Numbered from the stretch's first letter, positions 35,063 to 55,584 are shown. The stretch is DNA of 64,000 nt from Peptococcaceae bacterium UBA5356 (GCA_002407935.1 DHPU01000008.1:9430-73429); one strand, 5' to 3'. Made by a program: numbers and translations. The notes: a model not told the origin generated them from the sequence alone.

Positions 35063-35107
35063 TTGCGGTAGTCCAAGTGATGCGGGTCTTGGACTACCGC
35101 AATTTTT
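35063..35107 (+). terminator. Rho-independent terminator closing the nfeD-floA unit
   Basis: 15-bp perfect stem ttgcggtagtccaag / cttggactaccgcaa followed by ttttt. Confidence 0.85.
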
Positions 35108-35132: not shown

Positions 35133-35161
35133 TTGCAATACCTAATACGGTAAAATATGAT
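35133..35161 (+). promoter_or_regulatory. Candidate sigma-A promoter of the accessory island operon
   Basis: TTGCAA-N17-TATGAT, ~60 nt upstream of the first island gene. Confidence 0.4.
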
Positions 35162-35218: not shown

Positions 35219-38200
35219 ATGAGGAGAAGTGAAAAATTCAAAAAAATCACGATGACAATATTATTAATGATTTTTCTATGTACTAACTCTACATTCGCAT
35301 TTCAGGCAAGTGCATCCGGCACAAAATTATTGGGTATTGAAAAAGAACATGGGCAGCCTGAAATGATCGGGCAGGAAGGGTACGAAACCGACAGATTTAT
35401 TATTAAGTATAAAGAGAGTAAAGGTAATGAAGGAGAAAAAACAAAAAAACAGTATCAGGAACTGTTAAAGGACAAGTTGTTCTCGGTAGAGAAAATCAAT
35501 GGCAGGAAGGGACCAAACTATCAAAGGATAGTACTAAACCAGAAGCTGAAGACTAAGGATTTTCTTGATGCGCTTGCGGTCAAAGACAAGACGATTGATA
35601 TAGAATATATTCAACCCGACTATCAATTAAGCTGTTTCTCAAATGATCAGTATTATGCAAGCCAGTGGGGGCTTGAAAATAATTTACCGGAATCAGCACA
35701 GGATGAGGAATTCCTACGGGACGAAGCCCGGCATAGACTTCCGCCTCATTTAAGAGACACCATGGAGAGGCATCCCGAGCTTATAGAGATAATCAGAAAT
35801 ACCCCGCCGAAGGAGTTAAGAGCAAGGCTGATGAGTAAGAAGGTAATGTGTGACATTCCTCCGGAAATACTCTTTGAGCTGGCTCACGAGCCTTTATTAA
35901 GGGAGAGAGGACGTAATAGAACGGTGCAGCAGGAATATGTTTGTGATGCCGCAGTTAAGGGGGCTTGGGAGAAGACAAATGGTGAAGGGGTTCTTGTTGC
36001 TGTAATTGATACCGGTATCGATGTAACTCATGAAGATCTTGTGGGGAACATTTGGGAAAATACCGGAGAAATACCTGATAATGGCCTTGATGATGATGGT
36101 AACGGTTATGTGGACGATGTGTATGGTTGGAATTTTTCTGACGGGAATAATCTTGTTTTTAATAAGGATAATCTCAATGCGGAAAAACATGGCACCCATG
36201 TGGCCGGGATCATTGCGGCCGAAAAGGACAACGGAAAGGGTGTGGCCGGGACAGCACCTAAGGCAAAAATCATGCCTTTGAAGGTGTTTAAAGATGGCAC
36301 GGCCTATACCAGCGAGATTATTGCAGCCATAGAGTATGCGGAAAAAATGGGAGCCCGGATTGTGAACGCCAGTTGGGGCAGTACCATGGATAACCCTGCC
36401 TTGAAAGAAGCGATAGAAAACAGTAAGATGCTTTTCGTTTGTGCTACTGGCAACAGCGGAGTAAATCTGGAAAACAGCCCGGTTTATCCAGCTTCCTTCG
36501 CAGGTAAAAATATTATTTCCGTTGCATCATTAAATAGAAATGGCATTTTATCGGCGTTTTCCAATTATGGAGCATCGGCAGTTGATGTTGCTGCACCGGG
36601 AGAAAAAATTATCAGCACAATTCCGGGGAACAGCTATGCCAATATGAGCGGGACATCTATGGCGGCGGCTTTTGTGTCGGGCGAAGCAGCTTTATTATTA
36701 GGCATGGATAAAAACTTAAAGGCGGCTGATATTAAGGGGCGAATAGTAGGTTACTGTGATAGATTATCTTCTTTGAAAGGGAAGATACATCAAAGCAATA
36801 AAGTGAATTGTACGAATGCAGTGAATAAAAGTGGTAACAATAAATTAATCAATGTTAGTGTTGCATCGCATTCAAATGATGCTGTTAAAGCAAGCGTTAC
36901 TTCGGGCGTGGATAGTTTTGCTTTGTTCGAGGCATCGTCAAAAGGGTTGCTCAATGTAAAGAATGTTGTGGGTGGAAGATATCATAGTTTAGCGTTAAAG
37001 GAAGATGGAACAGTGTGGGCATGGGGAGATAATTTTTATGGACAATTAGGGGATGGGACATTTGATAACAAAACAATTCCGGTGCAGGTAAGCGAGTTAA
37101 CTGGAGTAAAGGCAATTGCCGGTGGAGGTTATCATAGTTTAGCGTTAAAGGAAGATGGAACAGTGTGGGCGTGGGGATCTAACCGCAAAGGACAATTAGG
37201 AAATGGAACGTATGAAGATAGCGCAATTCCGGTGCAGATAAGCGGGTTAACTGGAGTAAAAGCTATTGCTGGTGGATACGAACATAGTCTAGCGTTAAAG
37301 GAAGATGGAACAGTGTGGGCGTGGGGATCTAACCGCAAAGGACAATTAGGAAATGGAACGTATGAAGATAGCGCAATTTCGGTGCAGGTAAGCGGGTTAT
37401 CTGGGGTAAAAGCAATTGATGGAGGAGTTTGTCATAGTCTAGCGTTAAAGGAAGATGGAACAGTGTGGGCGTGGGGAGAAAACTGTGATGGACAATTAGG
37501 AAATGGAACGTATGAAGATAGCGCAATTCCGGTGCAGGTAAGCGGGTTATCTGGGGTAAAAGCAATTGATGGAGGAGTTTGTCATAGTCTAGCGTTAAAG
37601 GGAGATGGAACAGTATGGGCGTGGGGAGCTAATTGGCTTGGACAATTAGGAGATGGAACGGATGACGAAAGCGCAATTCCGGTGCAGGCAAGTGGGTTGA
37701 TTGGAGTAACAGCAATTGATAGTGGAGATTATCATAGTCTAGCGTTAAAGGAAGATGGAACAGTATGGGTGTGGGGAGATAACTGGAAAGGGCAATTAGG
37801 AAATGGGACGTATGAAGAAAGCCTAATTCCGGTGCAGGTAAGCGGGTTAACCGGAGTAAAAGCAATTGCTACTGGAGGTCATCATAGTTTAGCGTTAAAG
37901 GAAAGTGGGACAGTGTGGGCGTGGGGAGATAACGAGGACGGACAATTAGGGAATGGAACGTGCGGCACTATTCCAATTCCGGTGCAGGTAAGCGGGTTAA
38001 CCGGGGGAAAAGCAATTGCCGGTGGAGGTAGTCATAGTCTAGCGTTAAAGGAAGACGGAACAGTATGGGCGTGGGGATATAACTGGGACGGAGAATTAGG
38101 AAATGGAACGGATGAAGAAAGCTCAATTCCGGTGCAGGTAAGCGGGTTAACTGGGGTAAAGGCAATTGCTGGTGGATACTTTCATAGTCTAGCGTTAAAG

Positions 38201-39682
38201 GAAGACGGAACAGTATGGGCGTGGGGAGAAAACCGGGATGGACAATTAGGAAATGGAACGTATGAAGATAGCGCAATTCCGGTGCAGGTAAGTGGGTTAA
38301 CCGGAGTAAAAGCAATAACTGGTGGAGGTAATCATAGTCTAGCGTTAAAGGAAGACGGAACAGTATGGGTGTGGGGATCTAACCGCAAAGGACAATTAGG
38401 AAATGGTACGTATGAAGAAAGCCCAATTGCGGTGCAGGTAAGCGGGTTAACCGGGGTAAAAGCAGTGGCTGGAGGATGCAATCATAGTCTAGCGTTAAAG
38501 GAAGACGGAACAGTGTGGGCGTGGGGATATAACTGGGGTGGACAATTAGGAAATGGTACGTATGAAGAAAGCCCAATTGCGGTGCAGGTAAGCGGGTTAA
38601 CCGGGGTAAAAGCTATTGCCGGTGGAGGCAATCATAGTCTAGCGTTAAAGGAAGACGGAACAGTATGGGCGTGGGGATATAACTGGGAAGGACAATTAGG
38701 AGATGACACAGATGACAATAGCCCAATTGCGGTGCAGGTAAGTGGGTTAACCGGAGTAAAAGCTATTGCTGGTGGATTCGAACATAGTCTAGCGTTAAAG
38801 GAAGACGGAACAGTATGGGTGTGGGGATCTAACTGGGAAGGACAATTAGGAAATGGGACGTATGAAAAAAGCCTAATTCCGGTGCAGGTAAGCGGGTTAA
38901 CCGGGGTAAAGGCAATTGCTGGTGGATACTTTCATAGTATAGCGTTAAAGGAAGACGGAACAGTGTGGGCGTGCGGATCTAACGAGGATGGTCAATTGGG
39001 GGATGGAATGAAGATACTAAACTCGTCTTATCCTTTAGGGCTCTATGGCAATCCTCCTACTGTTGAAGCATTTTTGACTGATACGGCACTAGATCTTTCC
39101 TACAGTGCTATTGGTGGTACCGTATATTATGAAGTGGAGGTTAATGGTTCGTCAATAAATAATGGTAAGAACACAGCATACAGCTACCAAATATCCAGTC
39201 CCGGCAGTTTACCTACTTATCGGGTACGTTCCATAAACATGGACGGATTGGGTTTATGGAGCATAAATGCTCCAACGCAGGGATCATTCGGTACAATAAC
39301 AGACAACAGTATCGAGACGATCTGGGGAGCTAACGGAAACCCCAGTGGTACGTTATATAGAATTGCCGCTTTTGATGCAAATGATGAACTGGTAAAAGAA
39401 AACGAGTGGACAAGTAATTTTTCGGATACAATCACCAACCTTACTCCCAATACTTTTTATAAATTAAAAGGTAAGGCTAAAAACAGCGACAATGTTGAGA
39501 CAGGTTGGGTTGAGTTAGGATTGGTAACAACTCTTAATTCACAAATTATTAATTCATCTACTGTTTATGTTTATGATGAACGGAACAGGCTGGACTATAT
39601 GCAATTACAGTCAGGGGAAATAATTGATTTTCAGTACGATAATAACGGTAATTTAATTAGAACAGTAAGAAGCCAGCTATAG
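35219..39682 (+). CDS. Secreted multidomain protein: signal peptide, I9-like propeptide, subtilase (S8) domain, 14 RCC1 repeats, 2 FN3-like domains, short YD-repeat tail
   Basis: Signal peptide (LLMIFLCTNSTFAFQASA). S8 triad motifs VAVIDTGID / HGTHVAG / GTSMAAAFVSG. Fourteen 50-aa units HSLALKEDGTVWAWG.N..GQLGNGT....IPVQVSGLTGVKAIAGG. C-terminal YVYDERNRLDYM...FQYDNNGNLI. Confidence 0.9.
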   Translation: MRRSEKFKKITMTILLMIFLCTNSTFAFQASASGTKLLGIEKEHGQPEMIGQEGYETDRFIIKYKESKGNEGEKTKKQYQELLKDKLFSVEKINGRKGPNYQRIVLNQKLKTKDFLDALAVKDKTIDIEYIQPDYQLSCFSNDQYYASQWGLENNLPESAQDEEFLRDEARHRLPPHLRDTMERHPELIEIIRNTPPKELRARLMSKKVMCDIPPEILFELAHEPLLRERGRNRTVQQEYVCDAAVKGAWEKTNGEGVLVAVIDTGIDVTHEDLVGNIWENTGEIPDNGLDDDGNGYVDDVYGWNFSDGNNLVFNKDNLNAEKHGTHVAGIIAAEKDNGKGVAGTAPKAKIMPLKVFKDGTAYTSEIIAAIEYAEKMGARIVNASWGSTMDNPALKEAIENSKMLFVCATGNSGVNLENSPVYPASFAGKNIISVASLNRNGILSAFSNYGASAVDVAAPGEKIISTIPGNSYANMSGTSMAAAFVSGEAALLLGMDKNLKAADIKGRIVGYCDRLSSLKGKIHQSNKVNCTNAVNKSGNNKLINVSVASHSNDAVKASVTSGVDSFALFEASSKGLLNVKNVVGGRYHSLALKEDGTVWAWGDNFYGQLGDGTFDNKTIPVQVSELTGVKAIAGGGYHSLALKEDGTVWAWGSNRKGQLGNGTYEDSAIPVQISGLTGVKAIAGGYEHSLALKEDGTVWAWGSNRKGQLGNGTYEDSAISVQVSGLSGVKAIDGGVCHSLALKEDGTVWAWGENCDGQLGNGTYEDSAIPVQVSGLSGVKAIDGGVCHSLALKGDGTVWAWGANWLGQLGDGTDDESAIPVQASGLIGVTAIDSGDYHSLALKEDGTVWVWGDNWKGQLGNGTYEESLIPVQVSGLTGVKAIATGGHHSLALKESGTVWAWGDNEDGQLGNGTCGTIPIPVQVSGLTGGKAIAGGGSHSLALKEDGTVWAWGYNWDGELGNGTDEESSIPVQVSGLTGVKAIAGGYFHSLALKEDGTVWAWGENRDGQLGNGTYEDSAIPVQVSGLTGVKAITGGGNHSLALKEDGTVWVWGSNRKGQLGNGTYEESPIAVQVSGLTGVKAVAGGCNHSLALKEDGTVWAWGYNWGGQLGNGTYEESPIAVQVSGLTGVKAIAGGGNHSLALKEDGTVWAWGYNWEGQLGDDTDDNSPIAVQVSGLTGVKAIAGGFEHSLALKEDGTVWVWGSNWEGQLGNGTYEKSLIPVQVSGLTGVKAIAGGYFHSIALKEDGTVWACGSNEDGQLGDGMKILNSSYPLGLYGNPPTVEAFLTDTALDLSYSAIGGTVYYEVEVNGSSINNGKNTAYSYQISSPGSLPTYRVRSINMDGLGLWSINAPTQGSFGTITDNSIETIWGANGNPSGTLYRIAAFDANDELVKENEWTSNFSDTITNLTPNTFYKLKGKAKNSDNVETGWVELGLVTTLNSQIINSSTVYVYDERNRLDYMQLQSGEIIDFQYDNNGNLIRTVRSQL
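36950..39010 (+). repeat. In-frame tandem array of 14 x 150-nt RCC1-blade units (coding)
   Basis: Strict 150-nt period. For example, 37141-37228 is identical to 37291-37378 (88 nt). Confidence 0.95.
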
Positions 39683-39733
39683 CTTAATGGAAAAGAACGA
39701 TTTTGGAGCAATATTGTGTTGAGGAGGAGAAAA

Positions 39734-42700
39734 ATGAGGAAATCAGGATTTAAGAAGGTTATTTCCCTTGTATTGCTATTAACATTTAGTCTGGGCATTG
39801 CGATACCGACAGACCTTGCAAAGGCTACAGAAAGTGGTAAAACTCAAGAGTTTGTACAACAGACAAAGCCGGTTATTGAACCAAGCAATTTAACCAATAG
39901 TAACGAAAAACAATCTAAAGAGGATGCTGCTGCTGAGGACGTCAATAATAATGCAAGCACTTTGTCCCAAGAGGAAATAAATAAAATAGTTGACGATCAT
40001 TTACGCAGTCAAGAAAAGGTGGACGAATTTTCCGAAGAGAATAAAAGTGAAAACATAGAAATTACCGAAGAAGAAAAAACAGATCGGTTCATAATTAAAT
40101 ACAAAGATAGTAAACAAAAAGAAGAAACAGCGAAAAAATTAAAGAATAATAAGATTAAAAAAAGGATACAAACAAAAAACAAACAATATGATTTACTTAT
40201 TACCACTGAAAAAATAAATAAGAATGATTGCAAAAAGTATTTCCAACAAGAAAAGGACGATTCAAATATTGAATATATTCAGCCAGATTATGAGGTTACT
40301 GTAGCTGCAGTAGACTTATTGGAAAAGAATAATGAACAACCAATCGGAGGACCAGGGGAAGCACCAGTCGAACAACCAGCAGTGGAACCTATCGACGAAT
40401 CTGAAAAAGGAACAATTGGAGAATCAGTAGATGAAGATCCTCTAGTTGAGGAGCCTATAGATGAAGAAACAACGAATGAAGCTGTTGAAGATCAAAAGGA
40501 AGATGCAGCGGATGAATTAACAGAAGAACCAGTCAAAGACTCAAATACGGAGGAAAATGAGCCAACCGATGATGCCGAACTTGATGATGCCCTTTTGACT
40601 GAACAAGACGAAATAACCGAAGAAATTATCGAGGAGATTACTCCGGTAGATGACCCTAATTTTGCCGAGCAATGGGCTCTACAACCCAATGAATATACTG
40701 ACAAAAAGAATCAAGTAAGTGCCGTGGGCATTGATGCCGTTAATGCTTGGGAAAACGCGGAAGGGAAAGGCGTTATTGTCGCGGTTTTGGACACCGGAGT
40801 TGACATTACGCATGAAGACCTCTCGGATAATATCTGGGTAAATGCCGCAGAAATTCCGGGAAATGGTCTTGATGACGATGAGAATGGGTATATTGATGAT
40901 GTCAATGGTTGGAATTTTGTTAATAAAAGCAATTTAGTGCATGACCCTGCTCTAGTGCATGACGAATGGCATGGGACGCATATCGCCGGAATTATTGCTG
41001 CTTCTAAAGGGAACCAAAAAGGGATTGTTGGAGTAGCACCAAAAGCAAAAATTATGCCCTTACAGGTTTTCCAAAATGGGACGGCTTATACCAGCGATAT
41101 AATAAGCGCGATCGAGTATGCTCAACAGATGGGCGCGCAAATTGTCAACTGTAGTTGGGGAACTACCAGTGAAAACGTCGCATTGCAGGAGGCAATAGCT
41201 GAAGCGGGACTTCTCTTCGTTTGTGCGGCCGGTAATAGCAATCAAGATATTGATCTTGATCCAGTTTATCCTGCTTCGTTATCGAATAGCAATGTTATTG
41301 CTGTTGCCGCGATCAAAAAAAATGGGCATTTAGCTACATTTTCAAATTATGGTGAGAACTCCGTAGATGTAGCTGCCCCGGGCAGTGAGATCGAGAGTAC
41401 TTTACCTGAAAATAACTATGGGAAGAGTGCGGGAACCTCAATGGCAGCAGCTTTTGTTTCCGGGGAAGCAGCGTTAATTATCAGCAGGTTTCCCGAGGCC
41501 AGTCATGCTGAGGTCAAAGCAAGAATTATGGATTCTTCCGATAGGTTATCTTCATTGAATGGCAAAGTAAAAAGAGCATCTAAAATTAATTGTGCAAATG
41601 CATTGGAGGAGCCACTTAATGATAATTACGGCATATTAAAGGTTTTAGAGGAAGAAATTAGTGCAGAAGAAAGCATAGGATCGTCAGAGGGTGGAGATTT
41701 TAGTTTATATTCTGTTGATGAATGGAATACTCGAGCCAGTATGTCAACGCCGAGGAGATATCTGGGAGTAGTTGAGCTGAACGGGAAGATTTATGCGATT
41801 GGCGGGTATAATGGTGCATATAAGAATACAGTAGAGGAGTATGATCCAGCCACTAATACATGGTCAACAAAAGCCAGTATGAGTTATGCCCGCTATGGAC
41901 TTGGCGTTGCAGCAGTTAATGGCAAGATTTATGCGATTGGTGGATATAACGGTGGATATAAGAGTTATGTTGAAGAATATAATCCGGTTACGAATACTTG
42001 GAGTACGAAAGCCAGCATGCCTACGGCCAGGGGGTATTTAGGTGTTACGGCTGTTAACGGAAAGATTTATGCGATTGGCGGTTATAACAGTAATGGGAAT
42101 TTAAACACCGTAGAAATATACGATCCAATTAATAATCAATGGAGCACGAAGACAAGTATGGCAGTTGCTAGGTATGGTCTAGGTGTCGTGGAAATTAATA
42201 GCAAGATTTATGCGATTGGTGGTTACAACGGGAGTTATCTAAATGCTGTGGAAGAATACGATCCTGTAACAAACACTTGGAACATGAAAGCTAGTATGCC
42301 TACCCCTAGGAGATTATTTGGTGTAACGGTGGCAAACGGGAAAATCTATGCGATAGGAGGAAGGAACAGCTCTTACCAAAACATTGTTGAGGAATATAAC
42401 CCGCTTGTTGATACCTGGGGGAAAAGAAATAATCTTTCCACTGCAAGAGAAGGTTTGGGTGCTGTCGCGGTAAACGGGAAAATCTATGCGATAGGTGGCT
42501 ATAATGGTAGCTATTTAGCTACTAACGAGGAATATGGTTTACCCTTAAGTAGCTGGAGTCAATTGAAGAGTATGGCTACAGCCAGGACGGGGCTTAGTGC
42601 TGCTGCAGTCAACGGTAAATTATATGCGATAGGCGGCTATAATGGGAGTACTTATTTAAATACTGTTGAAGAATATGATTCAGCTAACAACTCCTGGACG

Positions 42701-45700: not shown

Positions 45701-48700
45701 GGTAGATATGGTCTTTCGGCAGCAGAGTTAAACGGTAGAATATATGCGATTGGCGGCCATGATGGAAATAACTATCTAAACATCGTAGAAGAATATGACC
45801 CTGACACCCAAAAATGGGTTCCCAAACAAGGAACGATTGATCCGCGGGCTTTTTTTGGTGCTGCCTCCTTTGCCGGAAATATTTATTTAATTGGCGGTTG
45901 TAATGAAAAAGAATATTTACGAACCATTGAGCAGTATAATGTTGGAGATATTATCTGGGAGTCAAGAGCACCGTTATTGTCTCCAAGAGCTTCATTAGGC
46001 GTGGCTGCGGTGAACGGTAGAATTTATGTCATCGGAGGGAAAAATGACTATAATTATCAATTTAATGAGGTTGAAGAATATAATCCCGCTACCAATGTCT
46101 GGATTGATAAAGCTATTATGCCAACTGCCAGAGCGGGGCTGGGCGTAGCGGAAGTAAATGGGAAGATTTACGCAATCGGCGGATATGCAGGAACTACACA
46201 ATTAAATAAAGTAGAAATGTATGATCCGGCAACCAACACTTGGAGCACAAAGGCAAATATGCCTACTGCCCGGAGTAAAATAGGCGTTGCCGCAGTCAAC
46301 GGCAAGATTTATGCTATCGGCGGATATAACGGAAGCGCGGAAATAGGAATAGTAGAGGTATATGATCCGGCAACTAACAGTTGGAATACCAGAGCAAGCA
46401 TGCCTACGGCCAGAAGTGCCTTTGGCATAACAGCTTTAAATGGAAAAATCTATATAGCCGGTGGACGTTTGAGGGGTTCTCTTGATACAGTGGAGGAATA
46501 TGATCCGGTAACCGACAACTGGAGCACTAAGGCCAGCTTAACAAGCTGGAAGTCCGGATTAAGTATCGCGGCATTAAACGGTAAAATTTACGCATTGGGG
46601 GGAGACCAACTAAATGTTGTAGAACAATATGATCCCGCTACGGATCATTGGACCACTAATACCAGTATGCCGATGGCGAAAAGCGATTTTGGTTTAGTAG
46701 CGTTGAATAATTATTTGTTTGTCATAGGTGGTATTGCTAAATCTACCTGCACTGACAGTGTCGAAGTCGGCAAATTTGGCGACGAAGCAACAAGCCCAGT
46801 TTTTGAATTAGTTCACTTGGGAGAAGAAAACGTCAATCCTTCAGGGAATTTCTCCCGCTCCTATACTGATATGGAAATTCCGGCGCCAGGATTTGATATT
46901 GACATAACCCGCACATATAATTCCCGGGATTACAGAAACGATAGTCCGTTGGGCCTTGGTTGGAGTTTTGGTTTCCAAGGCAGCCTCAAAGATAGTGATG
47001 ATAACCAATGGATGGCTAGAATGCCTAATGGGAGCGCCATGACCTTCACCAAAAATGCGGATAGTTCGTACACAGCCAATGATTTAAGGGCAACGCTTGT
47101 GAAACAGGCGGATAATACCCATATCCTTACTACCCAAGATCAATACACTTATGGGTTTGATACTAACGGTTGGCTGAAGTGGATGAAGGATAGAAACGGA
47201 AACATTATTAACCTCATGGTGAACGCCGCGAACGGGAAAGTGACCGCGATCACCGACCAGGTGGGACGGCAAATAAACCTTACATACAATGCTCAGGGGT
47301 ACATCCAAACCATTACCGACCCGTTGAATCGTACTGTGTACTACGAGTATACCAATAACCAGCTTACCAAGGTCACCGATCCCCGTGGCAAGAACATGTA
47401 TTACAGCTATAATTCCCTTGGGTATTTGGAAACAATCAAAGACCATGATAACAATATACTTGAGTCTGTTGTTTATGATGCTATATCAGGTACTTTGCCT
47501 AAAGTTGCCCGGGTAACGGATATTTACGGGAACACTCAGACCTATATGTATGATACTGAATACCGGAAAGTTACCGTTACCGATCTAAATGGGCGGGAAA
47601 CAATCACCTGGTTTGACAATTCCCTTTATCCGATCCAAGTGCAAGATGCTGATGGGCGAAGAAGTACCACTATTTATACCCTTGACGAAAATGGCGGCAA
47701 TAAATACGGAGAAGTAGAATCAATTACCGATCGAAATGGGAACAGAACCGTATATGAAAGAGACAGCAGAGGGAACATTACCCATATCTATCATCCTGAT
47801 TCCAGCTGTCAGGAATTTGGCTACGATGATAAGAACAATAAAATCCGGGAAAAAGACCAGGACGGCAAATATACCTTCTATATTTACGATGGTACTAAAG
47901 CCAGACTACTCAAGAAAGCCCAACCCCTGAATGGCACAGACCAATATACAGCTGGTTGTAACGAAACGCCGTTTGCCGTAACCACCTATACCTATTATAC
48001 TGATGCCGAAGCACAACAAATGGGTTGTCAAGCGAAAGGGCTGCTTAAATCCGAGACTAACCCTAACGGAAAGCTTACAACCTATACCTACGATACTTAT
48101 GGCAATATCCGCACTGTTACCAATCCCGAAGGGAAAACAATCACTTACCAATACAACAACATCGGTTGGAAAACGGCGGAGATTTCCCCGAAACAAAATA
48201 CGACCAGCATCAATTACGACCAAAACGGGAATATCGAAGAAGTTACCTTAGCCGGGGGCGAAGTAACCCGTACGACCTATGACACGATGGGACGAGTCAC
48301 CAAAGAAGTAGCGGCAAACCTTTATGATCCCGCCTTAGATAATCTTGCCGGACATACCTATAATGGCAACCATGGTACGCGGTACACCTATTACCCCAGC
48401 GGCAAAATACGCACCGTGACCGATCCGGAAAACAACGTGACCAGCTATACTTATGATCTCTACGGGAATATCGCGACAGAAACCAAACCGAACGGAGCTA
48501 TCTATGAATATGGTTATGATGCTTTGGATCGTCTGACCTCAACCCAATTCAAAGAAAATACCGGAGCAGCTCTCGTGGTCTTAAACACCTATAGCTACCA
48601 GATCCTGCCTGACGGCAAAACGACCAAAACAGAGACCCGCTATCTCAACGACAGTGAGACAGCTGAGACAATTTACACTTACGATTACGAAGATCGGCTC

Positions 48701-51700
48701 ATCAAACAAGATAATCCTGACGGCAGTTCCAGCAGTACACAATATAACCCGAACGGAACGATAAACTCCACCACCGATGAGCGGGGTAAGACCACTTATT
48801 ACCGCCATGACGGACTGAACAGGAATACGGAAAAGTGGATTCCGGCCAGTTTTGACGGAGGCGTTACCCTTTACACTTATGTAAAGAACACCTACGATAA
48901 AGTGGGTAATTTAATGACCACGCAAACCGGGAAAGAGACCGTTCCCTTGTATCAAACGGCATCCGAGCTCATTACCGTGACGAATACATACTATGACGAT
49001 AATAAATTAAAGAGCCAAGCGGATAGTGCCGGCAGAAAAACTGAGTACCAATATGACGATGACGGCTATCTTAGCCGTAAAGAGGTCTACACTGATGCAA
49101 CTGCAAAAATCACTACGGAATATCTCAACAATCATCTGGGTAAACCCGTTGAAGAAAAGCTCCATGTTCAGGAAAAAGATTTGGCGGGCGATGACCCAAC
49201 CAGCGAACAAGAAGTAATCCTCACCACCACGTATACTTACGATCAAAACGGGAACTTGAAAACCTTAACCAGACCGGACACCATCGTAATTACGTATACC
49301 TATGATCATCTCGATAGGGTTCTTAGCACCAGTATGCCGGGCGTAGACGAGCACAACAACCCCGTCCAGATCACCACTGCCACCACCTACAACTGGGATG
49401 GGCAAGTCCTCACTGAAACTGATGCCAATAATCATACCATCAGGAATACATACGATCAGCGTGGTCGGCTAATCAAAACTACTGACACCTTGGAGAAAAC
49501 GGCTGCTTACTACTATGACCGCGGCGGTCGTCTAATCGCGGAAGTATCACCCAATAACTATGATCCGGCGAAAAACCTTACCCAAATGAGCCGGACAGAA
49601 TACACTTATGATCTTATGGATCGGGTGCAAACCAAAGGCTACACCTATCTTGAGCCGATGAGCGGGCAGTGGCGGAGCTATGTCGCCCAAGCCTTCCAGT
49701 ATGACACTAAGGGCAATATTACCAAACAGCTGGATGCGTTAGGCTTTGCGGCAGGGGCTGGTACTACCGCCCAAAAAATTGCCAGCGGCTATGGTACGGT
49801 CACTACTTACGACTTAGCAGATAGAGTGCTCACAATTCTGGATCCGGTAAGTCAGGAAAAAGGGCTGCCCTTTACTGTGAAGTATCAATATGACGGGGCC
49901 GGGCGCAAAACAAGCGAAACTAACGCCAAAAATATCGGCACTGCCTACACTTACGATGAGGCCGGGAACATTCTTTCCATTACGAAGGACAATCATTTAA
50001 TCCAAACCAACACTTATGACCTCACTGGCCATCTGCTGGCTCAAACCGACGCCAACGGCAACACTACGACCTTCGAATACAATGCCTTCGGGAAAGAAAG
50101 AAAAGCAAACTACCCCGGTGATGCGACAATTCCAGTCAATAGCACTACTTCCCAATACGACCGGCTGGGAAACCTGATGCAAGAAACGAACGCTGCCGGC
50201 TTTGTTGACCTGTACACCTACGATAACCAAGGGCGGGAAACATCTCAGACGCGGCGCAAAGCCGACGGCACGCAAAGTATTACCACCAGCGTGCGTTACG
50301 ACAAAGCAGGGAACCCGCGTTTCCTCACGGACGGGAATAGCAAAACCACAGAACAAAGCTATAATGACAACAATAAGCTTATTAGCAGTAAAATAACCGT
50401 TACCGATCTAAATGGCACGGCGCGAGAGCAAAGCACCACCTATACCTATGATGCGAACGGCAATCAGCTTACCCAAACAGACTGGCTGGGTAACACCTAC
50501 ACCAATATTTATGATCCTTTAAACCGGCTGATTGAAAAGAAAGATCCGCTGCACAAAAGCATCAGCAGACTGGAATACAACGAGAACAGCGTGCAAGTAA
50601 AAGCTTACGATGCCTTGGGCAAAGCAACCCAATACACGTATGACAAAAACAACCGGCTCCTTTCGACCATTGATCCCCTAAATCACAGCAAAAGCCAGAC
50701 CTACGATGAAACCGGGAAAATAAAGACCTCTACTGATGGCCGGGGAAATACGACGATCTACAACTACGATAATTTTGACCGTCTCAGCTCCGTAGTGAAT
50801 GCGTTAAACGAAACCACTGCCTATACTTACGACTTAAACGGCAACCTGTTAACCCAGACGGATGGCGAAGGGCGGGTCACCACCTTTGAATACAACGCCG
50901 CGAACAAAAGCACCAAAAAAATAGACCATGGAGGGAGAACCGGCACCCCGGGCAACTACACCTATGACCTCGCTAAGACGGAAAGCTATACCTATGACGC
51001 CTTGGGGAACCTTGTTACCAAAACAGACCGCAATGGCAAAACCACTACCTATACCTATGATATTCATGGTAAAATATTGACAGAGAATGTGGGAATCATC
51101 TCAACTGCCTATACCTATGACGGGAACGGGAATCAGTTGACCATGACCGATCAGACCGGCACTACAACCCGGACCTATGACGAACTTAACCGCACCAAAA
51201 CGAAAACTATTCCCGGGGCAGGAACCTTAACCTTCCTTTATGACATCACCGCCGGACTTCCTGCCGGGCAGGTCGCGGAACAGCAGACTGATGCCAAAGG
51301 CAACATTACGACCCAAATCTTCGACCAAGCGGGAAGAATGTGTCAAGTCACGGCTGATGGGCAGACGACCACTTACACCTATTATGATGACGGCAAAAAG
51401 CACCAGATTATTTATCCCTTCGGTTTCAGCGAAGAATATACCTATTATGACGATGGCATGCTGCATACGCTTGTCAATAAAAAAGCGGATCAGAGCATCA
51501 TTGACAGCTATACCTATACTTACGATGAAGCGCATAACCTTGTTACGAAGCTTGATGCCAAAGGAACCACAACCTATACCTATGACTACCTCAATCGGCT
51601 GGAAACCGTCACCGAACCGAACAAAACTACCACCTATACCTATGACAGAGCAGGCAACCGCATTAATCAATTGGAAGAAGCCGAAGGCGGGCAATTGCTG

Positions 51701-53371
51701 GATACTCCGGGAGCAGCCGTCAACACCTATGACGAATTAAACCGGCTGAAAACTGTGGTCAAAGATGGCACGACGATCACCAATACATACAATGGGGAAG
51801 GCTTCCGCGTAGCCAAAGAAGTAAATGGTGTAACCACCAACTACGTCTATGTCTCAGACCAAATCGTTCTTGAACTGGATGGCTCCGGTAACCAGACCGC
51901 CCGCAATGTCCAGGGAACGAACCTGATCTCCCGGACAGTAGATGGCGTAACTCTTTACTATATGTACAATGGGCACGGAGATGTTACCGCTCTCATTGAT
52001 TCCAGCGGGAATATTCACACCACATATTACTATGATGCTTTCGGTAATTTACTGGAATCTACGGGTAATGTCAATAATCCCTTTACCTATGCCGGATACC
52101 AGTATGACCAAGAGACAGGCTACTATTACCTGCAAGCACGGCACTATGACCCCATCACGGCTCGCTTTATTTCCGAGGATACTTACCGGGGTGATCCCAC
52201 GGATCCGCTCACGCTGAATCTGTATACGTACGGGATAAATAACCCAATAAGGTATATTGATCCTACCGGGCATTACATTGATGAAAGCAAATTAAGCAAC
52301 TTATCAAATGATAAGTATTATAAAGATGTAAAACTGACCTATGTTCCGGGGAAAGGCGATACTCTAACTGTAACCACAAAAGATGGTTTGAAAATAACTA
52401 TTACGGATAACCGTTCGGGTGTATATATTGATCCGACAGACCGAGTTCATGATTTATCCAGTCATGGCAATAAGAAGAAGAGCAGTCAGGTTAAATCTAA
52501 CGCGGGGAAAAATGATACAAAAGCCAATAGTCCAAAGCAAAAAACGATTCAGCCACCCAAACAAAATGCATCACCTCAAAACATGGCACCCGTACCAGTA
52601 GTAACACCTTCGACAGCAGGTGAGTTGTCAAAAAAGTTGGGATCGGGATATGATGCAGTTGGAATGGGTGGGTTCCGAGTACAAGAAGCAGGCCGTTATA
52701 CATTTTCACTTGATAAATACAGCAATATAGATGATCTTGTTGGTAAAGTGTATTGCGCTTGGAATGACACCCATCCAGATAAAAGAGTACCTATTCTCAA
52801 ATTACAAAATAGTGGTTTTTTTGGTACTGAGTTTTATACCAGATTAAGTTACCTACAAAAGATGGGAGTAGATATTTCACAACTAGATGTTCAGGAATTA
52901 GATAGGATATACGAGGCTGAGCATTATGCTAAAGTAGATATGATTGCAGGTGGTGTTGGTATTGCAGCGGGGATTGCAGCAAATACTGCAAGGATGGCTA
53001 CAGCGGCTAAGACAGTTACTAATGTTGCAGATGATGTTGTAGAGGGCGCGGGGAAGTGGACTAACAGAATTAAGGCTACCCAAGAAGTAATTCCGGGCAC
53101 AAATATTCCCAAATCTTTTGTTATGGAAGGAAAAGTGGTCAATGGTAAGGAAATATGGGTTCATGGTAACGCAACAAAACACATGGGTGAATTTGTAAAT
53201 TCAGCAAAGGGTTCCGTTTTGGTTGAGAATGAATTGATGGCTAGCTTTCAAAATACCGTATCGGAAATATTACCTAAAGTTAAGCCTGGACGTAATTTTT
53301 TCAACTTAAACGGATGGGAAATGGGAATAAGCGGTGATACCGGCGTAATTTATCACGCACTTTTTAAGTAG
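39734..53371 (+). CDS. Giant (~4,545 aa) secreted polymorphic toxin: signal peptide, I9-like propeptide, acidic linker, subtilase (S8), 36 Kelch repeats, RHS/YD-repeat cage, C-terminal toxin region
   Basis: ATG at 39734 after GAGGAGGAG; signal peptide ...GIAIPTDLAKA. S8 motifs VAVLDTGVD / HGTHIAG / GTSMAAAFVSG. 36 units of NGKIYAIGGYNG..YLNTVEEYDP.TNTWS.KASMPTAR. RHS N-plug (ITRTYNSRD...GLGWSF) and many YD repeats. RHS core end RHYDPITARFISEDT...NLYTYGINNPIRYIDPTGH. Confidence 0.93.
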   Translation: MRKSGFKKVISLVLLLTFSLGIAIPTDLAKATESGKTQEFVQQTKPVIEPSNLTNSNEKQSKEDAAAEDVNNNASTLSQEEINKIVDDHLRSQEKVDEFSEENKSENIEITEEEKTDRFIIKYKDSKQKEETAKKLKNNKIKKRIQTKNKQYDLLITTEKINKNDCKKYFQQEKDDSNIEYIQPDYEVTVAAVDLLEKNNEQPIGGPGEAPVEQPAVEPIDESEKGTIGESVDEDPLVEEPIDEETTNEAVEDQKEDAADELTEEPVKDSNTEENEPTDDAELDDALLTEQDEITEEIIEEITPVDDPNFAEQWALQPNEYTDKKNQVSAVGIDAVNAWENAEGKGVIVAVLDTGVDITHEDLSDNIWVNAAEIPGNGLDDDENGYIDDVNGWNFVNKSNLVHDPALVHDEWHGTHIAGIIAASKGNQKGIVGVAPKAKIMPLQVFQNGTAYTSDIISAIEYAQQMGAQIVNCSWGTTSENVALQEAIAEAGLLFVCAAGNSNQDIDLDPVYPASLSNSNVIAVAAIKKNGHLATFSNYGENSVDVAAPGSEIESTLPENNYGKSAGTSMAAAFVSGEAALIISRFPEASHAEVKARIMDSSDRLSSLNGKVKRASKINCANALEEPLNDNYGILKVLEEEISAEESIGSSEGGDFSLYSVDEWNTRASMSTPRRYLGVVELNGKIYAIGGYNGAYKNTVEEYDPATNTWSTKASMSYARYGLGVAAVNGKIYAIGGYNGGYKSYVEEYNPVTNTWSTKASMPTARGYLGVTAVNGKIYAIGGYNSNGNLNTVEIYDPINNQWSTKTSMAVARYGLGVVEINSKIYAIGGYNGSYLNAVEEYDPVTNTWNMKASMPTPRRLFGVTVANGKIYAIGGRNSSYQNIVEEYNPLVDTWGKRNNLSTAREGLGAVAVNGKIYAIGGYNGSYLATNEEYGLPLSSWSQLKSMATARTGLSAAAVNGKLYAIGGYNGSTYLNTVEEYDSANNSWTAKASMPTARGFSGVAAVNGKIYVVGGYTGSTYLNTLEMYDSVTNTWTTKASMPTARGYLAVSVVNGKIYAVGGYNGSAYLNTVEEYDLATDTWVVKTNMPTGRRNLGAAAANGKLYAVGGYNGSYLNTVEEYDPTDNVWRSKIGMSAGKEKLGIVSLFGKVYAIGGYNGTEYLNSLEEYDPLTNNWISKNKENMIQPRGSFGVASYNGNIYVLGGSGNNGYGAQLNTVEEYNLTADIANFKASMPTGRWDVGAIAVNGKIYAIGGTNGNTYLNNVEEYDPATDTWTSKANMPTARRSFGITQVNGKIYIIGGATGGTTFITTVEEYDPVTNSWSTKASMPTARYLLSAATVNGKIYAIGGSNGSSIFKTVEEYNPITNTWSTKTSMSIARMGLSTVAANGKIYAIGGWYNAPLNAVEEYNPVTNSWSTKACLPTARQELGAITANGKIYAVGGDSHGSLDIVEEYDLTTNTWAKEHSLLMERTRFGLADCSGKIYVLGGLSDNATASNLVEEYNLGATAWNTKANMGTARKDFGIVAANGKIYAVGGNNGGTCLNTVEEYNSITNTWAAKANLLTAREGLGAAAVNGKLYAIGGYNGSSYLNTIEEYDLSTNTWSAKANMPTARRYLGIAAVNGKIYAIGGYNGSYLNKVEEYDPLTNSWTTKASMPTARSMLTLVVAYGKLYAIGGYNGGYLNKVEEYDPATNIWSVKANMPSIRAGAGAAVVNHKIYVMGGTNGTNNYLDFNEEFDPINNLWAQKSTLPTTRGNLGVGSVNGKIYAIGGIRYETSNILLKTVEEYDPTYDSVSIESDKASSRKGLGVVATDSKLLAIGGYNENGYLNGVDIYREGRLWCTTQMTLSRKDLGTAYVNGKVYVIGGYDGTNYLNAVEIFQTNNYYNGTWTTGASMQTARAGLGVVAVNGRLYAIGGQNSNGYLNTVEEYDPYTDTWRMRASMATPRSEFGIAVHNGLIYVIGGRNEDILSSVEVYDPISNKWAVATNLPKGRYGLSAAELNGRIYAIGGHDGNNYLNIVEEYDPDTQKWVPKQGTIDPRAFFGAASFAGNIYLIGGCNEKEYLRTIEQYNVGDIIWESRAPLLSPRASLGVAAVNGRIYVIGGKNDYNYQFNEVEEYNPATNVWIDKAIMPTARAGLGVAEVNGKIYAIGGYAGTTQLNKVEMYDPATNTWSTKANMPTARSKIGVAAVNGKIYAIGGYNGSAEIGIVEVYDPATNSWNTRASMPTARSAFGITALNGKIYIAGGRLRGSLDTVEEYDPVTDNWSTKASLTSWKSGLSIAALNGKIYALGGDQLNVVEQYDPATDHWTTNTSMPMAKSDFGLVALNNYLFVIGGIAKSTCTDSVEVGKFGDEATSPVFELVHLGEENVNPSGNFSRSYTDMEIPAPGFDIDITRTYNSRDYRNDSPLGLGWSFGFQGSLKDSDDNQWMARMPNGSAMTFTKNADSSYTANDLRATLVKQADNTHILTTQDQYTYGFDTNGWLKWMKDRNGNIINLMVNAANGKVTAITDQVGRQINLTYNAQGYIQTITDPLNRTVYYEYTNNQLTKVTDPRGKNMYYSYNSLGYLETIKDHDNNILESVVYDAISGTLPKVARVTDIYGNTQTYMYDTEYRKVTVTDLNGRETITWFDNSLYPIQVQDADGRRSTTIYTLDENGGNKYGEVESITDRNGNRTVYERDSRGNITHIYHPDSSCQEFGYDDKNNKIREKDQDGKYTFYIYDGTKARLLKKAQPLNGTDQYTAGCNETPFAVTTYTYYTDAEAQQMGCQAKGLLKSETNPNGKLTTYTYDTYGNIRTVTNPEGKTITYQYNNIGWKTAEISPKQNTTSINYDQNGNIEEVTLAGGEVTRTTYDTMGRVTKEVAANLYDPALDNLAGHTYNGNHGTRYTYYPSGKIRTVTDPENNVTSYTYDLYGNIATETKPNGAIYEYGYDALDRLTSTQFKENTGAALVVLNTYSYQILPDGKTTKTETRYLNDSETAETIYTYDYEDRLIKQDNPDGSSSSTQYNPNGTINSTTDERGKTTYYRHDGLNRNTEKWIPASFDGGVTLYTYVKNTYDKVGNLMTTQTGKETVPLYQTASELITVTNTYYDDNKLKSQADSAGRKTEYQYDDDGYLSRKEVYTDATAKITTEYLNNHLGKPVEEKLHVQEKDLAGDDPTSEQEVILTTTYTYDQNGNLKTLTRPDTIVITYTYDHLDRVLSTSMPGVDEHNNPVQITTATTYNWDGQVLTETDANNHTIRNTYDQRGRLIKTTDTLEKTAAYYYDRGGRLIAEVSPNNYDPAKNLTQMSRTEYTYDLMDRVQTKGYTYLEPMSGQWRSYVAQAFQYDTKGNITKQLDALGFAAGAGTTAQKIASGYGTVTTYDLADRVLTILDPVSQEKGLPFTVKYQYDGAGRKTSETNAKNIGTAYTYDEAGNILSITKDNHLIQTNTYDLTGHLLAQTDANGNTTTFEYNAFGKERKANYPGDATIPVNSTTSQYDRLGNLMQETNAAGFVDLYTYDNQGRETSQTRRKADGTQSITTSVRYDKAGNPRFLTDGNSKTTEQSYNDNNKLISSKITVTDLNGTAREQSTTYTYDANGNQLTQTDWLGNTYTNIYDPLNRLIEKKDPLHKSISRLEYNENSVQVKAYDALGKATQYTYDKNNRLLSTIDPLNHSKSQTYDETGKIKTSTDGRGNTTIYNYDNFDRLSSVVNALNETTAYTYDLNGNLLTQTDGEGRVTTFEYNAANKSTKKIDHGGRTGTPGNYTYDLAKTESYTYDALGNLVTKTDRNGKTTTYTYDIHGKILTENVGIISTAYTYDGNGNQLTMTDQTGTTTRTYDELNRTKTKTIPGAGTLTFLYDITAGLPAGQVAEQQTDAKGNITTQIFDQAGRMCQVTADGQTTTYTYYDDGKKHQIIYPFGFSEEYTYYDDGMLHTLVNKKADQSIIDSYTYTYDEAHNLVTKLDAKGTTTYTYDYLNRLETVTEPNKTTTYTYDRAGNRINQLEEAEGGQLLDTPGAAVNTYDELNRLKTVVKDGTTITNTYNGEGFRVAKEVNGVTTNYVYVSDQIVLELDGSGNQTARNVQGTNLISRTVDGVTLYYMYNGHGDVTALIDSSGNIHTTYYYDAFGNLLESTGNVNNPFTYAGYQYDQETGYYYLQARHYDPITARFISEDTYRGDPTDPLTLNLYTYGINNPIRYIDPTGHYIDESKLSNLSNDKYYKDVKLTYVPGKGDTLTVTTKDGLKITITDNRSGVYIDPTDRVHDLSSHGNKKKSSQVKSNAGKNDTKANSPKQKTIQPPKQNASPQNMAPVPVVTPSTAGELSKKLGSGYDAVGMGGFRVQEAGRYTFSLDKYSNIDDLVGKVYCAWNDTHPDKRVPILKLQNSGFFGTEFYTRLSYLQKMGVDISQLDVQELDRIYEAEHYAKVDMIAGGVGIAAGIAANTARMATAAKTVTNVADDVVEGAGKWTNRIKATQEVIPGTNIPKSFVMEGKVVNGKEIWVHGNATKHMGEFVNSAKGSVLVENELMASFQNTVSEILPKVKPGRNFFNLNGWEMGISGDTGVIYHALFK
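40661..41615 (+). other. Subtilase (peptidase S8) catalytic domain of the giant protein
   Basis: Asp codon at 40790-40792, His at 40970-40972 (HGTH) and Ser at 41438-41440 (GTSMA). Closely paralogous to the S8 domain of the upstream gene. Confidence 0.85.
41717..46775 (+). repeat. Array of 36 Kelch-type beta-propeller blades (coding, ~47 aa each)
   Basis: 36 occurrences of the [KR][IL]Y[AV][IV]GG core counted by hand. Every sixth unit (6, 12, 18, 24, 30, 36) has an atypical linker. Confidence 0.85.
46792..52272 (+). repeat. RHS/YD-repeat shell region ending at the RHS-core autoproteolysis motif
   Basis: Dozens of YxYDxxGNL/R-type repeats. Ends with the conserved YDPxxxRFxxxDP ... NLYxYxxNNPxxYxDPxGH motif at ~52258-52272. 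Confidence 0.9.
49988..51034 (+). repeat. Direct repeat copy A (~1,047 bp) inside the giant gene; copy B is at 54190-55236
   Basis: See the orphan fragment: near-identical DNA, same orientation, 4,202 nt apart. Confidence 0.9.
52273..53371 (+). other. Variable C-terminal region (365 aa): putative toxin cargo, unclassified
   Basis: Begins immediately after DPTGH. Contains a small beta-rich segment, a K/S/P/Q-rich linker, an unknown ~120-aa domain, a Gly/Ala-rich hydrophobic helix (MIAGGVGIAAGIAANTARMATAA) and a terminal ~105-aa domain (…WVHGNATKHM…GVIYHALFK). Lower GC than the RHS shell. Confidence 0.6.
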
Positions 53372-53383
53372 GAGGATACAAGT

Positions 53384-53905
53384 GTGCTATTAAAAAATAA
53401 AATTGAACACGGTGAAACTATTGCACAAGTTGAATTTGAAAAAGTAGCTGACGATTTACTGATGATTTCTATTGACAATGACATCAACGACTCATCTAGG
53501 GTGTTTAGCTATTGGAGATTATTAGGTACAGGTGAGAATCCACCTCTGGAAATTGGTATAAATACTAAGAAAAAGACTATAAAAAATATAACTTTTTTTG
53601 TGGATTCCGATTGTTTCAAAGACTTGACTTTTCAAGAACTAAATGTTCTTAAAGGTAGCATCATCGTTGACACGAAGATTTTTAGGAAAGAAAACGATTA
53701 TGTGGACTTAACAGGAGAATATGTTGTATCTGTATTAGATAATAGGCTCATTTGTATTTTCGACTCACATAGCCATATTAAAGAAATTATTGGGAATAAC
53801 AACATCAAGTTCTTTGTGAATAGCAATAATGAATTATACGGATTTGCTATTTATCATTTACAAGAACAAGAAATAAAAGAAATAATGTCCATAAGGAAAA
53901 TCTAA
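53384..53905 (+). CDS. Putative cognate immunity protein (family not recognised)
   Basis: 173-aa ORF 12 nt after the toxin stop. RBS AGGAGGA overlaps the toxin stop codon; GTG start. Very AT-rich, with no signal peptide or TM helix. The position is canonical for Rhs immunity genes. Confidence 0.6.
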   Translation: MLLKNKIEHGETIAQVEFEKVADDLLMISIDNDINDSSRVFSYWRLLGTGENPPLEIGINTKKKTIKNITFFVDSDCFKDLTFQELNVLKGSIIVDTKIFRKENDYVDLTGEYVVSVLDNRLICIFDSHSHIKEIIGNNNIKFFVNSNNELYGFAIYHLQEQEIKEIMSIRKI

Positions 53906-54135: not shown

Positions 54136-54183
54136 TTTAACCTGCTGCATGGTTTATCTACCACGAAGAAATGACTAATACGT

Positions 54184-55275: not shown

Positions 55276-55317
55276 TAAAATAAAAGCATGCAGAGAGTAG
55301 CTGGAGAGAGTAATATA

Positions 55318-55584
55318 ATGCCTTTAATTTCACAATTTTACGGGATTTTGATAAGAATGTTTTTTAATGACCAGGAGCAGCACTGTTTACCACATTTTCA
55401 TGCGGTGTATGGTGAATACTCAGGTTCTTTTACACTGGACGGTGAGCTTATAACTGGAGATATTCCCAAAAAGCAGCAGAAGCTTGTTGCTGCTTGGGCT
55501 ATCATTCATCAGGAGGAGCTTGAAGCACTTTGGAAGACCATTCAAGAGACTGGTGAATACTTTACAATAAAGGGACTGGAGTGA
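55318..55584 (+). CDS. DUF4160 domain protein
   Basis: MPLISQFYGILIRMFFNDQEQHCLPHFHAVYGE matches the DUF4160 signature (F.GI.I.MY.ND..PPHFHA.Y.E). ATG at 55318 after ggagagag. Confidence 0.8.
   Translation: MPLISQFYGILIRMFFNDQEQHCLPHFHAVYGEYSGSFTLDGELITGDIPKKQQKLVAAWAIIHQEELEALWKTIQETGEYFTIKGLE

Follow-up and report, generated by a model that had tools for sequence, protein, structure and literature searches.

Positions 35,219 to 39,682 of a 64,000-nucleotide (nt) stretch of DNA from Peptococcaceae bacterium UBA5356 (GCA_002407935.1 DHPU01000008.1:9430-73429; the whole stretch is called the window below) hold an open reading frame (ORF), ORF1, whose product combines an S8 subtilase head, 14 RCC1 blades, two FN3-like domains and a short tail of RHS-type YD repeats. 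The gene immediately downstream encodes a giant RHS toxin. Comparison of ORF1 with its relatives makes it reasonably probable that this protein is a separately encoded, co-transcribed, trans-acting protease-propeller subunit of a Sec-exported clostridial RHS polymorphic-toxin system. Because the ORF1 family sits directly 5' of giant RHS toxin genes in many Clostridia, ORF1 probably functions as a helper of the toxin; that it is a toxin in decay, or a recent copy of one, is less likely.

The conserved order of the two genes was followed in 78 loci, which were sampled with the pro-region motifs only, from one genome per species, and confirmed by tblastn; many of these loci end at contig edges. 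S8, RCC1, Kelch and RHS regions were mapped on all ORFs of the loci with profiles made from the window's own repeats and domains, which divergent genes may escape, the RHS detector being a single-sequence hidden Markov model. A same-strand RHS ORF follows 29 of the 42 complete, toxin-less head genes whose downstream flank measures 4 kb or more. In 26 of these 29 the RHS start is no more than 2 kb away, and about half of the gaps are 139 nt or shorter or the genes overlap. Within the S8-RCC1 subset an RHS ORF lies downstream in 18 of 24; behind two of the remaining genes, and behind a third whose flank is shorter, comes another S8 ORF that is cut off by the contig end. The linkage is strongly directional: over 8 kb on either side, 27 of 40 genes have an RHS start downstream and 0 of 43 have an RHS end upstream (Fisher p = 2e-12). 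The initial annotation of this stretch had suggested that the RCC1 protein may be an accessory or processing partner of the toxin, and this directional, conserved synteny fits that suggestion.

The gene pair was confirmed by Pfam in Ruminiclostridium papyrosolvens (L013) and in L031. The exact layout of the window, an S8-RCC1 gene followed by an S8-Kelch-RHS gene, recurs in Anaerobacterium chartisolvens (L004), L031 and L068, and in other loci the RHS protein is either headless or carries a divergent S8 head that lacks Kelch repeats. Cultured strains that bear the pair include Anaerobacterium chartisolvens DSM 27016, Ruminiclostridium papyrosolvens C7, R. sufflavum DSM 19573 and Sporotomaculum syntrophicum FB; in R. 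hungatei DSM 14427 the partner gene is followed by a second S8 gene, and the contig ends before any RHS region. A protein identical to ORF1, with the same neighbours, is present on two metagenome contigs (JGI 3300029822, ENA ERZ724040). Furthermore, S8-propeller heads that are fused to RHS and heads that belong to separate partners interleave in the tree of S8 domains, which indicates that head and cage have been joined and split repeatedly, a classical (Rosetta-stone) sign of proteins that act together. As a separate observation, six loci, mostly from Ruminiclostridium, have a protein of ~290-340 amino acids (aa) encoded between the partner and RHS genes (L013 6734-7603; also L012, L015, L016, L018 and L048). 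This protein has an N-terminal signal or anchor, a Lys/Glu-rich helical body and no Pfam match, and it is not encoded in the window.

The arrangement of the genes in the window is operon-like. An intrinsic terminator upstream of ORF1 folds strongly (minimum free energy, MFE, -26.4 kcal/mol; z = -4.66; equalled by 0 of 200 shuffles) and marks the start of a new transcription unit. ORF1 itself starts with ATG, ahead of which is a GGGGG ribosome-binding site. The gap of 51 nt to the toxin gene, as originally annotated, holds provided that ATG 39734, with a GAGGAGGAG site 5 nt ahead of it, is the start codon of the toxin. The RNA of this spacer is unstructured, its MFE of -6.7 kcal/mol being weaker than that of 199 of 200 shuffles, and a scan of its + strand yielded no terminator-like site. 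A 173-aa ORF, which has no Pfam or NCBIfam match, begins 12 nt past the toxin gene and is a candidate for the immunity protein by position. With a strong terminator upstream of ORF1 and none within the 51-nt gap, the genes for ORF1, the toxin and the candidate immunity protein appear to be laid out as one transcription unit, and the annotated co-transcription of the first two genes is therefore probable.

The domain structure of ORF1 agrees with the subtilase head and 14 RCC1 repeats that had been annotated, and the reading frame is exactly that proposed. The N-terminus is signal-like and is followed by a conserved pro-region, for which no Pfam I9 match was reported. Invariant columns in the pro-region (alignment A1) are T57, R59, I61, K63, K65 and I128-Y135, except for position 130, which is Y or F. 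The catalytic domain matches Peptidase_S8 (PF00082) over residues 255-510 with 190.9 bits (cut-off 21.8), and the Asp/His/Ser triad and oxyanion Asn are kept in ORF1 and in all 76 related S8 heads, consistent with an intact secreted subtilase that is probably active. The homologue P0003 differs from these 76 genome-locus heads in that Asn replaces the catalytic Asp (VINTGID), and it may be an inactive member of the family. Comparison with sequences in the PDB identifies deseasin MCP-01 and thermitase as the nearest solved structures to the S8 domain. Searches of NCBIfam with ORF1 gave sub-threshold matches to generic S8 models only (e.g., mycosin, 148.8 bits, cut-off 278.75) and no dedicated family.

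Between the pro-region and the catalytic core lies an insert that the initial annotation overlooked. The insert is common to the S8-RCC1 orthologues P0001-P0003 and to several of the loci, a Ruminiclostridium cellobioparum protein being one example of an orthologue that has it; it is not found in the head of the toxin, where an acidic linker occupies the same position. The ~95-aa insert is probably helical, and it is conserved by the S8-RCC1 subfamily and lacking in Kelch-type heads. The linker of the toxin (residues ~200-330; window 40330-40720) is an acidic, low-complexity segment rich in E, D, P and T that connects the pro-region to the S8 core.

The RCC1 part of ORF1 scores 983.8 bits against the RCC1-like domain PF25390 (cut-off 150), with 14 RCC1 stretches. 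At the DNA level the array has a period of 150 nt and 13.6 copies with 86% matches (Tandem Repeats Finder). Blades 1-13 share a mean identity of 78% at the protein and 84.5% at the DNA level, without indels or a 7-blade super-period, while blade 14 is divergent from the others. The similarity of blades 1-13 suggests ongoing homogenisation or recent expansion of single blades. Since most RCC1 partners have 7, 14 or 28 blades, we infer that the blades of ORF1 form two 7-bladed propellers; the nearest solved structures are the 7-bladed UVR8, the HERC2 RLD and BLIP-II. The two FN3-like domains that had been proposed are supported by their homologues. The second one scores 23.1 bits directly, below the Pfam fn3 cut-off of 25, and its counterparts in L010, P0159 and P0172 score 29-32 bits. 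Both units recur in tandem in giant proteins, of which P0139 has 12 fn3 stretches (HMMER, Pfam), and both domains are regarded as confirmed by this recurrence and by the scores of the close homologues. The initial annotation was also correct that ORF1 carries no toxin: no toxin domain was found in ORF1, the next gene downstream being the toxin itself. The translation and Pfam likewise reveal no DUF6531 plug, RHS core or DPxG...DPxG autoproteolysis motif in ORF1, all of which are present in the toxin, and there is no long RHS shell in ORF1 and no match to a profile of the toxin's RHS region.

A second feature that had been overlooked is the C-terminus. The last ~46 residues of ORF1 are two YD (RHS-type) repeats, with the RHS_repeat model matching the last 60 aa at 22.9 bits (Pfam, cut-off 22), and the stop codon comes 7 residues past the second repeat. 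Partners of RHS genes have one of two endings at this site. The first class, a C-terminal domain of ~110-125 aa, is found in 38 partner ORFs. The second class, the terminal YD tail, is found in at least 13 loci and has one or usually two repeats, then 3-10 residues and the stop; the usual two-repeat form reads Y.YD..NRL.YI, ~6 residues,.I.Y.YD.NGNLI. The tail occurs on RCC1, Kelch and propeller-less partners with S8 heads from at least four separate clades, and it ends at least 12 other proteins in related loci, mostly S8-propeller partners, with two being small ORFs that directly precede such a partner. In leave-one-out tests using a profile of the other tails, the tail of ORF1 scored 53.2 bits compared with a best score of 35.2 among 721 internal YD hits in RHS ORFs, and 10 of 12 YD tails outscored all internal repeats. 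A further locus outside the profile-building set, L024, was retrieved as a terminal YD match. Closely related proteins differ in their endings at the same position: P0159 (64% identical) has a single YD repeat followed by the stop, while P0172 (57%) and L010 carry the alternative domain. Because the nearest FN3-FN3 homologues carry either ending at the same position, the YD tail is an exchanged, conserved terminal module, and not a scar or a random truncation.

The tandem recurrence of the FN3 units and the homologues with either ending emerged from a full HMMER search with the tail against 1.84 billion representatives. Other searches with the tail were largely negative; a word-indexed search returned RCC1 matches from the stub only, and the PDB sequence search gave nothing significant apart from a weak RHS match (E about 1). 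A likeness of the tail to the first repeats of RHS shells was not seen, as the best internal matches lie mid-shell. A single-sequence AlphaFold2 model of residues 1270-1487 is unusable (mean predicted local distance difference test score 40). No clear pattern was evident by inspection between tail class and the presence of an S8 head on the downstream RHS protein. An origin of the tail by copying from the neighbouring toxin was considered and rejected, as even the top protein match is of a generic kind (37% over 35 aa) and DNA matches do not exceed 11 nt. These results likewise speak against a use of the tail as a recombination handle in the swapping of heads.

Two side observations concern these endings. 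Small ORFs (174-296 aa) with the same terminal YD tail lie directly 5' of S8 genes in L045 (8388-8909), L051 (7141-7689) and L073 (8618-9505), and thus the tail can also sit on a separate small protein. The ~120-aa domain follows the pattern FNLVLK..GRTFTITYD..DLC.MT..PG.I.F.V.K.IP..K.WSG..N.I.FK (L013 6081-6458 and 37 other ORFs), which may be reminiscent of a cohesin or Ig-like beta-sandwich. The domain has no Pfam match, and a word-indexed search with that of the orthologues returned one fragment only.

Taken together, these features suggest how ORF1 might work as a subunit of the toxin system. A transcript of ORF1, the toxin and the candidate immunity gene would start from a promoter just past the upstream terminator. 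ORF1 would be exported by its signal peptide, activated by removal of the pro-region as in other subtilases, and act extracellularly together with the RHS toxin. Its RCC1 propellers and FN3 domains would provide a binding surface distinct from the Kelch head of the toxin, and the YD tail would tie ORF1 to its RHS partner or to the same surface site; most orthologues have the ~120-aa domain in place of the tail. In the favoured scheme the S8 domain would cut proteins of the surface or envelope, belonging either to the target or to the toxin complex, and the RHS cage would be freed by this cleavage and reach the target membrane. That ORF1 and the toxin associate physically, and which substrate the protease cuts, are what we infer from the comparisons above.

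Several points weigh against this view of ORF1 as a toxin subunit. The case rests entirely on comparative genomics. No RHS ORF is within reach for about one third of the partner genes that have enough flank; among the RHS-less cases, L010, L011 and L014 have a second S8 ORF cut at the contig end. Divergent S8-RCC1 genes (L056, L062, L075, L076) seemingly lack RHS neighbours and, conversely, the S8-Kelch36-RHS toxin of L035 has no partner gene within 9.6 kb upstream. The toxin appears to have an active S8 head of its own, which would make a role for ORF1 purely as a releasing peptidase look redundant. Finally, the nearest S8 domains of solved structure are broad-specificity degradative enzymes, not specific convertases.

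A more specific form of this scheme, which is speculative and somewhat unlikely, is that the heads are interchangeable, separately encoded units that dock non-covalently on the RHS cage via the C-terminal module, with the YD tail joining the beta-sheet of the cage or the ~120-aa domain serving in its place. If this were true, one cage could be armed with several heads at once, in the window with an RCC1 head supplied in trans besides the Kelch head that it has in cis. A wider range of surfaces could then be bound and cut, which would address the passage of RHS toxins through the thick Gram-positive envelope.

A related but distinct explanation is a split cage, in which ORF1 docks as TcB does with TcC, its YD hairpins inserting into or extending the RHS shell while the protein serves as a receptor-binding or wall-breaching head in trans. 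TcB and TcC each supply RHS repeats to one cocoon, and in line with this the YD tail is distinct, conserved and found only at the very C-terminus of partners beside RHS genes. The interleaving of fused and split forms in the S8 tree, and the FN3 modules that lead straight into RHS repeats in some proteins (P0269), point in the same direction. However, the tail of ORF1 has only two repeats (~40 aa) compared with the hundreds of residues in TcB, the toxin in the window comes with a DUF6531 plug and a complete shell of its own, and most partners carry a non-YD domain instead. A split cage is unlikely.

It is also quite unlikely that ORF1 is an independent secreted protease or adhesin, involved in nutrition or in remodelling the cell's own surface, that came to lie beside the toxin through a shared mobile island. 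The resemblance of its S8 domain to degradative enzymes of the thermitase and deseasin type would suit such a function, as would the several divergent S8-RCC1 genes with no RHS neighbour in the fetched flank and the placement of the island between conserved housekeeping and sporulation genes. Against it stand the tight, directional linkage described above (27 of 40 downstream, 0 of 43 upstream, with short or overlapping gaps and in many genera) and the repeated fusion of the same type of head to RHS. It may hold for divergent family members that have no RHS neighbour.

The initial annotation also allowed for a decayed sister toxin, and on this explanation an S8-RCC1-FN3-RHS toxin would have been deprived of its shell and tip, leaving ORF1 as an N-terminal remnant with its YD repeats as the scar. 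The proposal draws on the YD repeats at the C-terminal end of ORF1, on the FN3-then-RHS order of P0269, and on the presence in the island of a truncated RHS fragment (54184-55275). A remnant is nonetheless improbable, since ORF1 is intact with all catalytic residues kept, and at least 12 partners from at least four S8 clades end in the same way, in one or two YD repeats plus 3-10 residues that outscore the ~700 internal repeats. In addition, orthologues with the alternative tail are also without a toxin, no RHS-like sequence follows the stop codon of ORF1, and the DNA of the tail matches the toxin gene over no more than 11 nt.

The relation of the two heads in the window bears on the last explanation. 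The pro-domain and S8 domain of ORF1 are homologous to those of the toxin, as had been annotated, with 59% identity over 293 aa for S8 (E = 1e-118; 59.4% in the tree set) and 33% over 91 aa for the pro-region (E = 3e-7). The peptides quoted for this comparison are all present, with the correction that ORF1 reads DNGLDDDGNGYVDDVYGWNF and not GNGL... All members of the head family share the motifs TDRFIIKYK, IEYIQPDY and DDDxNGYxDD without variation (alignment A1). In a distance-based, neighbour-joining tree of 76 S8 domains, which carries no support values, the head of ORF1 clusters with S8-RCC1 heads (L003, 71.9%; L010) and that of the toxin with Kelch36-RHS heads (L037, 72.8%; L035, 68.4%). 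The two heads rank 36th and 38th for each other among the 76. The initial annotation had stated beforehand that its proposal would fall if the two S8 heads were not each other's closest paralogues, and closer relatives, at 72-73% identity, are found elsewhere. Because each head has closer relatives in other genomes, the two fall in separate clades and ORF1 alone of the two has the insert, the gene pair is, by these comparisons, one of two old lineages and not a local duplication or shuffle. A recent local duplication with domain shuffling of one head at this locus is thus extremely improbable despite the 59% identity of the adjacent heads, as the many closer relatives in different clades, the conserved insert not found in the toxin and pro-regions of just 33% identity all speak against it. 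As a description of a local event, the annotated idea that one head is shuffled between propeller bodies at this locus fails; on the evolutionary scale of the family the shuffling is real, with the same type of head joined to RCC1, to Kelch or to neither.

The positions of ORF1, its domains and the adjacent elements are collected in Table 1.

Table 1. Positions of ORF1, its parts and adjacent features in the window.
Feature	Position	Strand	Basis
Intrinsic terminator of upstream gene	35063..35107	+	15-bp stem and U run
Promoter-like site TTGCAA-17-TATGAT	35133..35161	+	Consensus scan 9/12, weak pattern match only
ORF1, S8-RCC1x14-FN3x2-YD secreted protein (proposed trans-acting partner)	35219..39682	+	1487 aa, translation and Pfam
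ORF1 putative Sec signal peptide (MRRSEKFKK, hydrophobic core, FQASA)	35219..35314	+	By eye from translation
ORF1 pro-region with TDRFIIKYK and IEYIQPDY	35381..35629	+	Family-invariant motifs, alignment A1
ORF1 insert (LPPHLRD..PEL..NTP..ELR..RLM), ~90-95 aa	35666..35950	+	QWGL motif to catalytic Asp/core
ORF1 S8 subtilase catalytic domain, D264/H324/N412/S480	35951..36838	+	Pfam, catalytic residues checked
14 RCC1 blades, each exactly 50 aa	36971..39070	+	Pfam, repeat alignment, Tandem Repeats Finder
FN3-like domain 1	39071..39268	+	No direct Pfam match; tandem recurrence in giant fn3 proteins
FN3 domain 2	39269..39541	+	Pfam fn3 23.1 bits, below cut-off 25
Terminal double-YD tail (VYVYDERNRLDYMQLQSGEIIDFQYDNNGNLIRTVRSQL-stop)	39542..39679	+	Pfam RHS_repeat
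Intergenic spacer, 51 nt, with the toxin's ribosome-binding site	39683..39733	+	No terminator
Toxin gene, 4545 aa	39734..53371	+	Translation and Pfam
173-aa ORF, candidate immunity protein	53384..53905	+	Position only

The toxin is made up of a signal peptide, a pro-region, the acidic linker, the S8 domain, 36 Kelch repeats, DUF6531, the RHS shell, the DPxG core motif and a tip of ~480 aa. The island that holds the toxin genes is flanked by NfeD, FloA and a 156-aa gene on one side and by YqfD and a small ORF, termed yqfC-like from its position only, on the other; these housekeeping and sporulation genes indicate that the host is a spore-forming member of the Bacillota. Past the candidate immunity gene lies a 363-aa ORF that consists of RHS repeats only (54184-55275; match 54183-55236) and is a 95% copy, over 1055 nt, of positions 49981-51034 of the toxin gene. 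This ORF stops abruptly and ends without a core motif or toxin tip, which marks it as a truncated duplicate of part of the RHS region; it is no orphan toxin cassette. The 3' part of the RHS region (48001-52000) has a higher GC content (0.47-0.48) and a negative GC skew of -0.08 to -0.12, the rest of the window being mostly at +0.15 to +0.37. This region overlaps the stretch that is duplicated downstream, and it may be recently exchanged DNA. The segment between the RHS fragment and the yqfC-like and YqfD genes (55288-55826) encodes a DUF4160 protein (98 aa) and an overlapping 81-aa ORF, a small two-gene module seemingly unrelated to the toxin.

Parts of the system described here are already known. 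The toxin belongs to a known architecture class, and there is precedent for an S8 gene that serves a polymorphic toxin. No description of a separate S8-RCC1 or S8-propeller partner of RHS toxins was found in the literature searched, and the two alternative C-terminal modules and the loci with heads both in trans and in cis were found neither there nor as an NCBIfam family. Among proteins of solved structure, BLIP-II offers a likeness as a secreted bacterial RCC1-like propeller that is a tight protein binder, and yet none of deseasin MCP-01, thermitase, BLIP-II, UVR8 and the HERC2 RLD joins S8 to RCC1 or is linked to a toxin.

The Tc toxins provide a structural parallel. TcB contains SpvB, a beta-propeller and about half of the cocoon and needs TcA, while TcC consists of RHS repeats and a toxin tip; the two also occur fused. 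As in the window, the genes are adjacent, the upstream propeller product ends in RHS/YD repeats, and the downstream product has RHS repeats and a toxin tip. In contrast, ORF1 has a subtilase, RCC1 propellers and two YD repeats, with no SpvB or long RHS region by Pfam, and no TcA-like gene is present at the ORF1 locus.

A second parallel is with the WapA-type toxins of Bacillus subtilis and Streptococcus suis (PMC12704120), which are Sec-exported Gram-positive RHS toxins with a clade-specific N-terminus that is cut off the cage. The RHS toxin of S. suis is cleaved just before DUF6531 to remove the N-terminal region (PMC12704120), and fused forms of the proteins studied here would, with such a cut, yield the same two pieces as the split forms. 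The S. suis system also has accessory genes upstream, SecF-like and SrtB (PMC12704120). The N-terminus of WapA differs in being a cell-wall-binding module, and the accessory proteins are not of the subtilase-propeller type. Processing of WapA by the wall subtilase WprA in B. subtilis is not used as evidence here, as a review gives only an analogous maturation of the two proteins.

The catalogue of Zhang et al. (2012; PMC3482391) lists subtilisin domains as processing proteases inside Sec-dependent RHS toxins (Table 1 of that paper, Ntox32 row). The toxin in the window, with its S8 domain, beta-propeller, RHS repeats and toxin tip, fits this architecture class. In the catalogue the protease lies within the toxin polypeptide, and a separate, toxin-less S8-propeller partner was not found there.

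The closest precedent for ORF1 is the S8-associated polymorphic toxin system (S8-PTS) of Gram-positive bacteria, which comprises an S8 peptidase, a BetaH polymorphic toxin together with an immunity protein, and in which the upstream S8 genes are the proposed processing or releasing peptidases (Li, Tan and Zhang 2022, PMC9424270); RHS is mentioned there just in passing. In that system a signal-peptide-bearing S8 gene is mostly upstream of the gene for a Sec-exported toxin, which is followed by an immunity gene (PMC9424270). ORF1, with its signal-like N-terminus, has the same adjacency, with its 51-nt gap and the order conserved in 27-29 of 40-42 related loci, and the 173-aa ORF past the toxin is a candidate counterpart of the immunity gene. 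The toxin here differs in having the order S8-Kelch36-DUF6531-RHS and not signal peptide-BetaH-toxin domain, although no search aimed at BetaH was made, and it may bear a second S8 head of its own. The peptidase differs as well: in the ORF1 family it has a pro-region, between one and four propellers of the RCC1 or Kelch type, FN3 domains, and a tail of its own at the C-terminus. The S8-propeller gene is a testable candidate for the missing delivery or maturation component that would take Sec-exported RHS toxins of Gram-positive bacteria from the wall of the producer to the membrane of a neighbour. If this is its role, the idea of S8-associated polymorphic toxins would be extended from small BetaH toxins to giant RHS cages.

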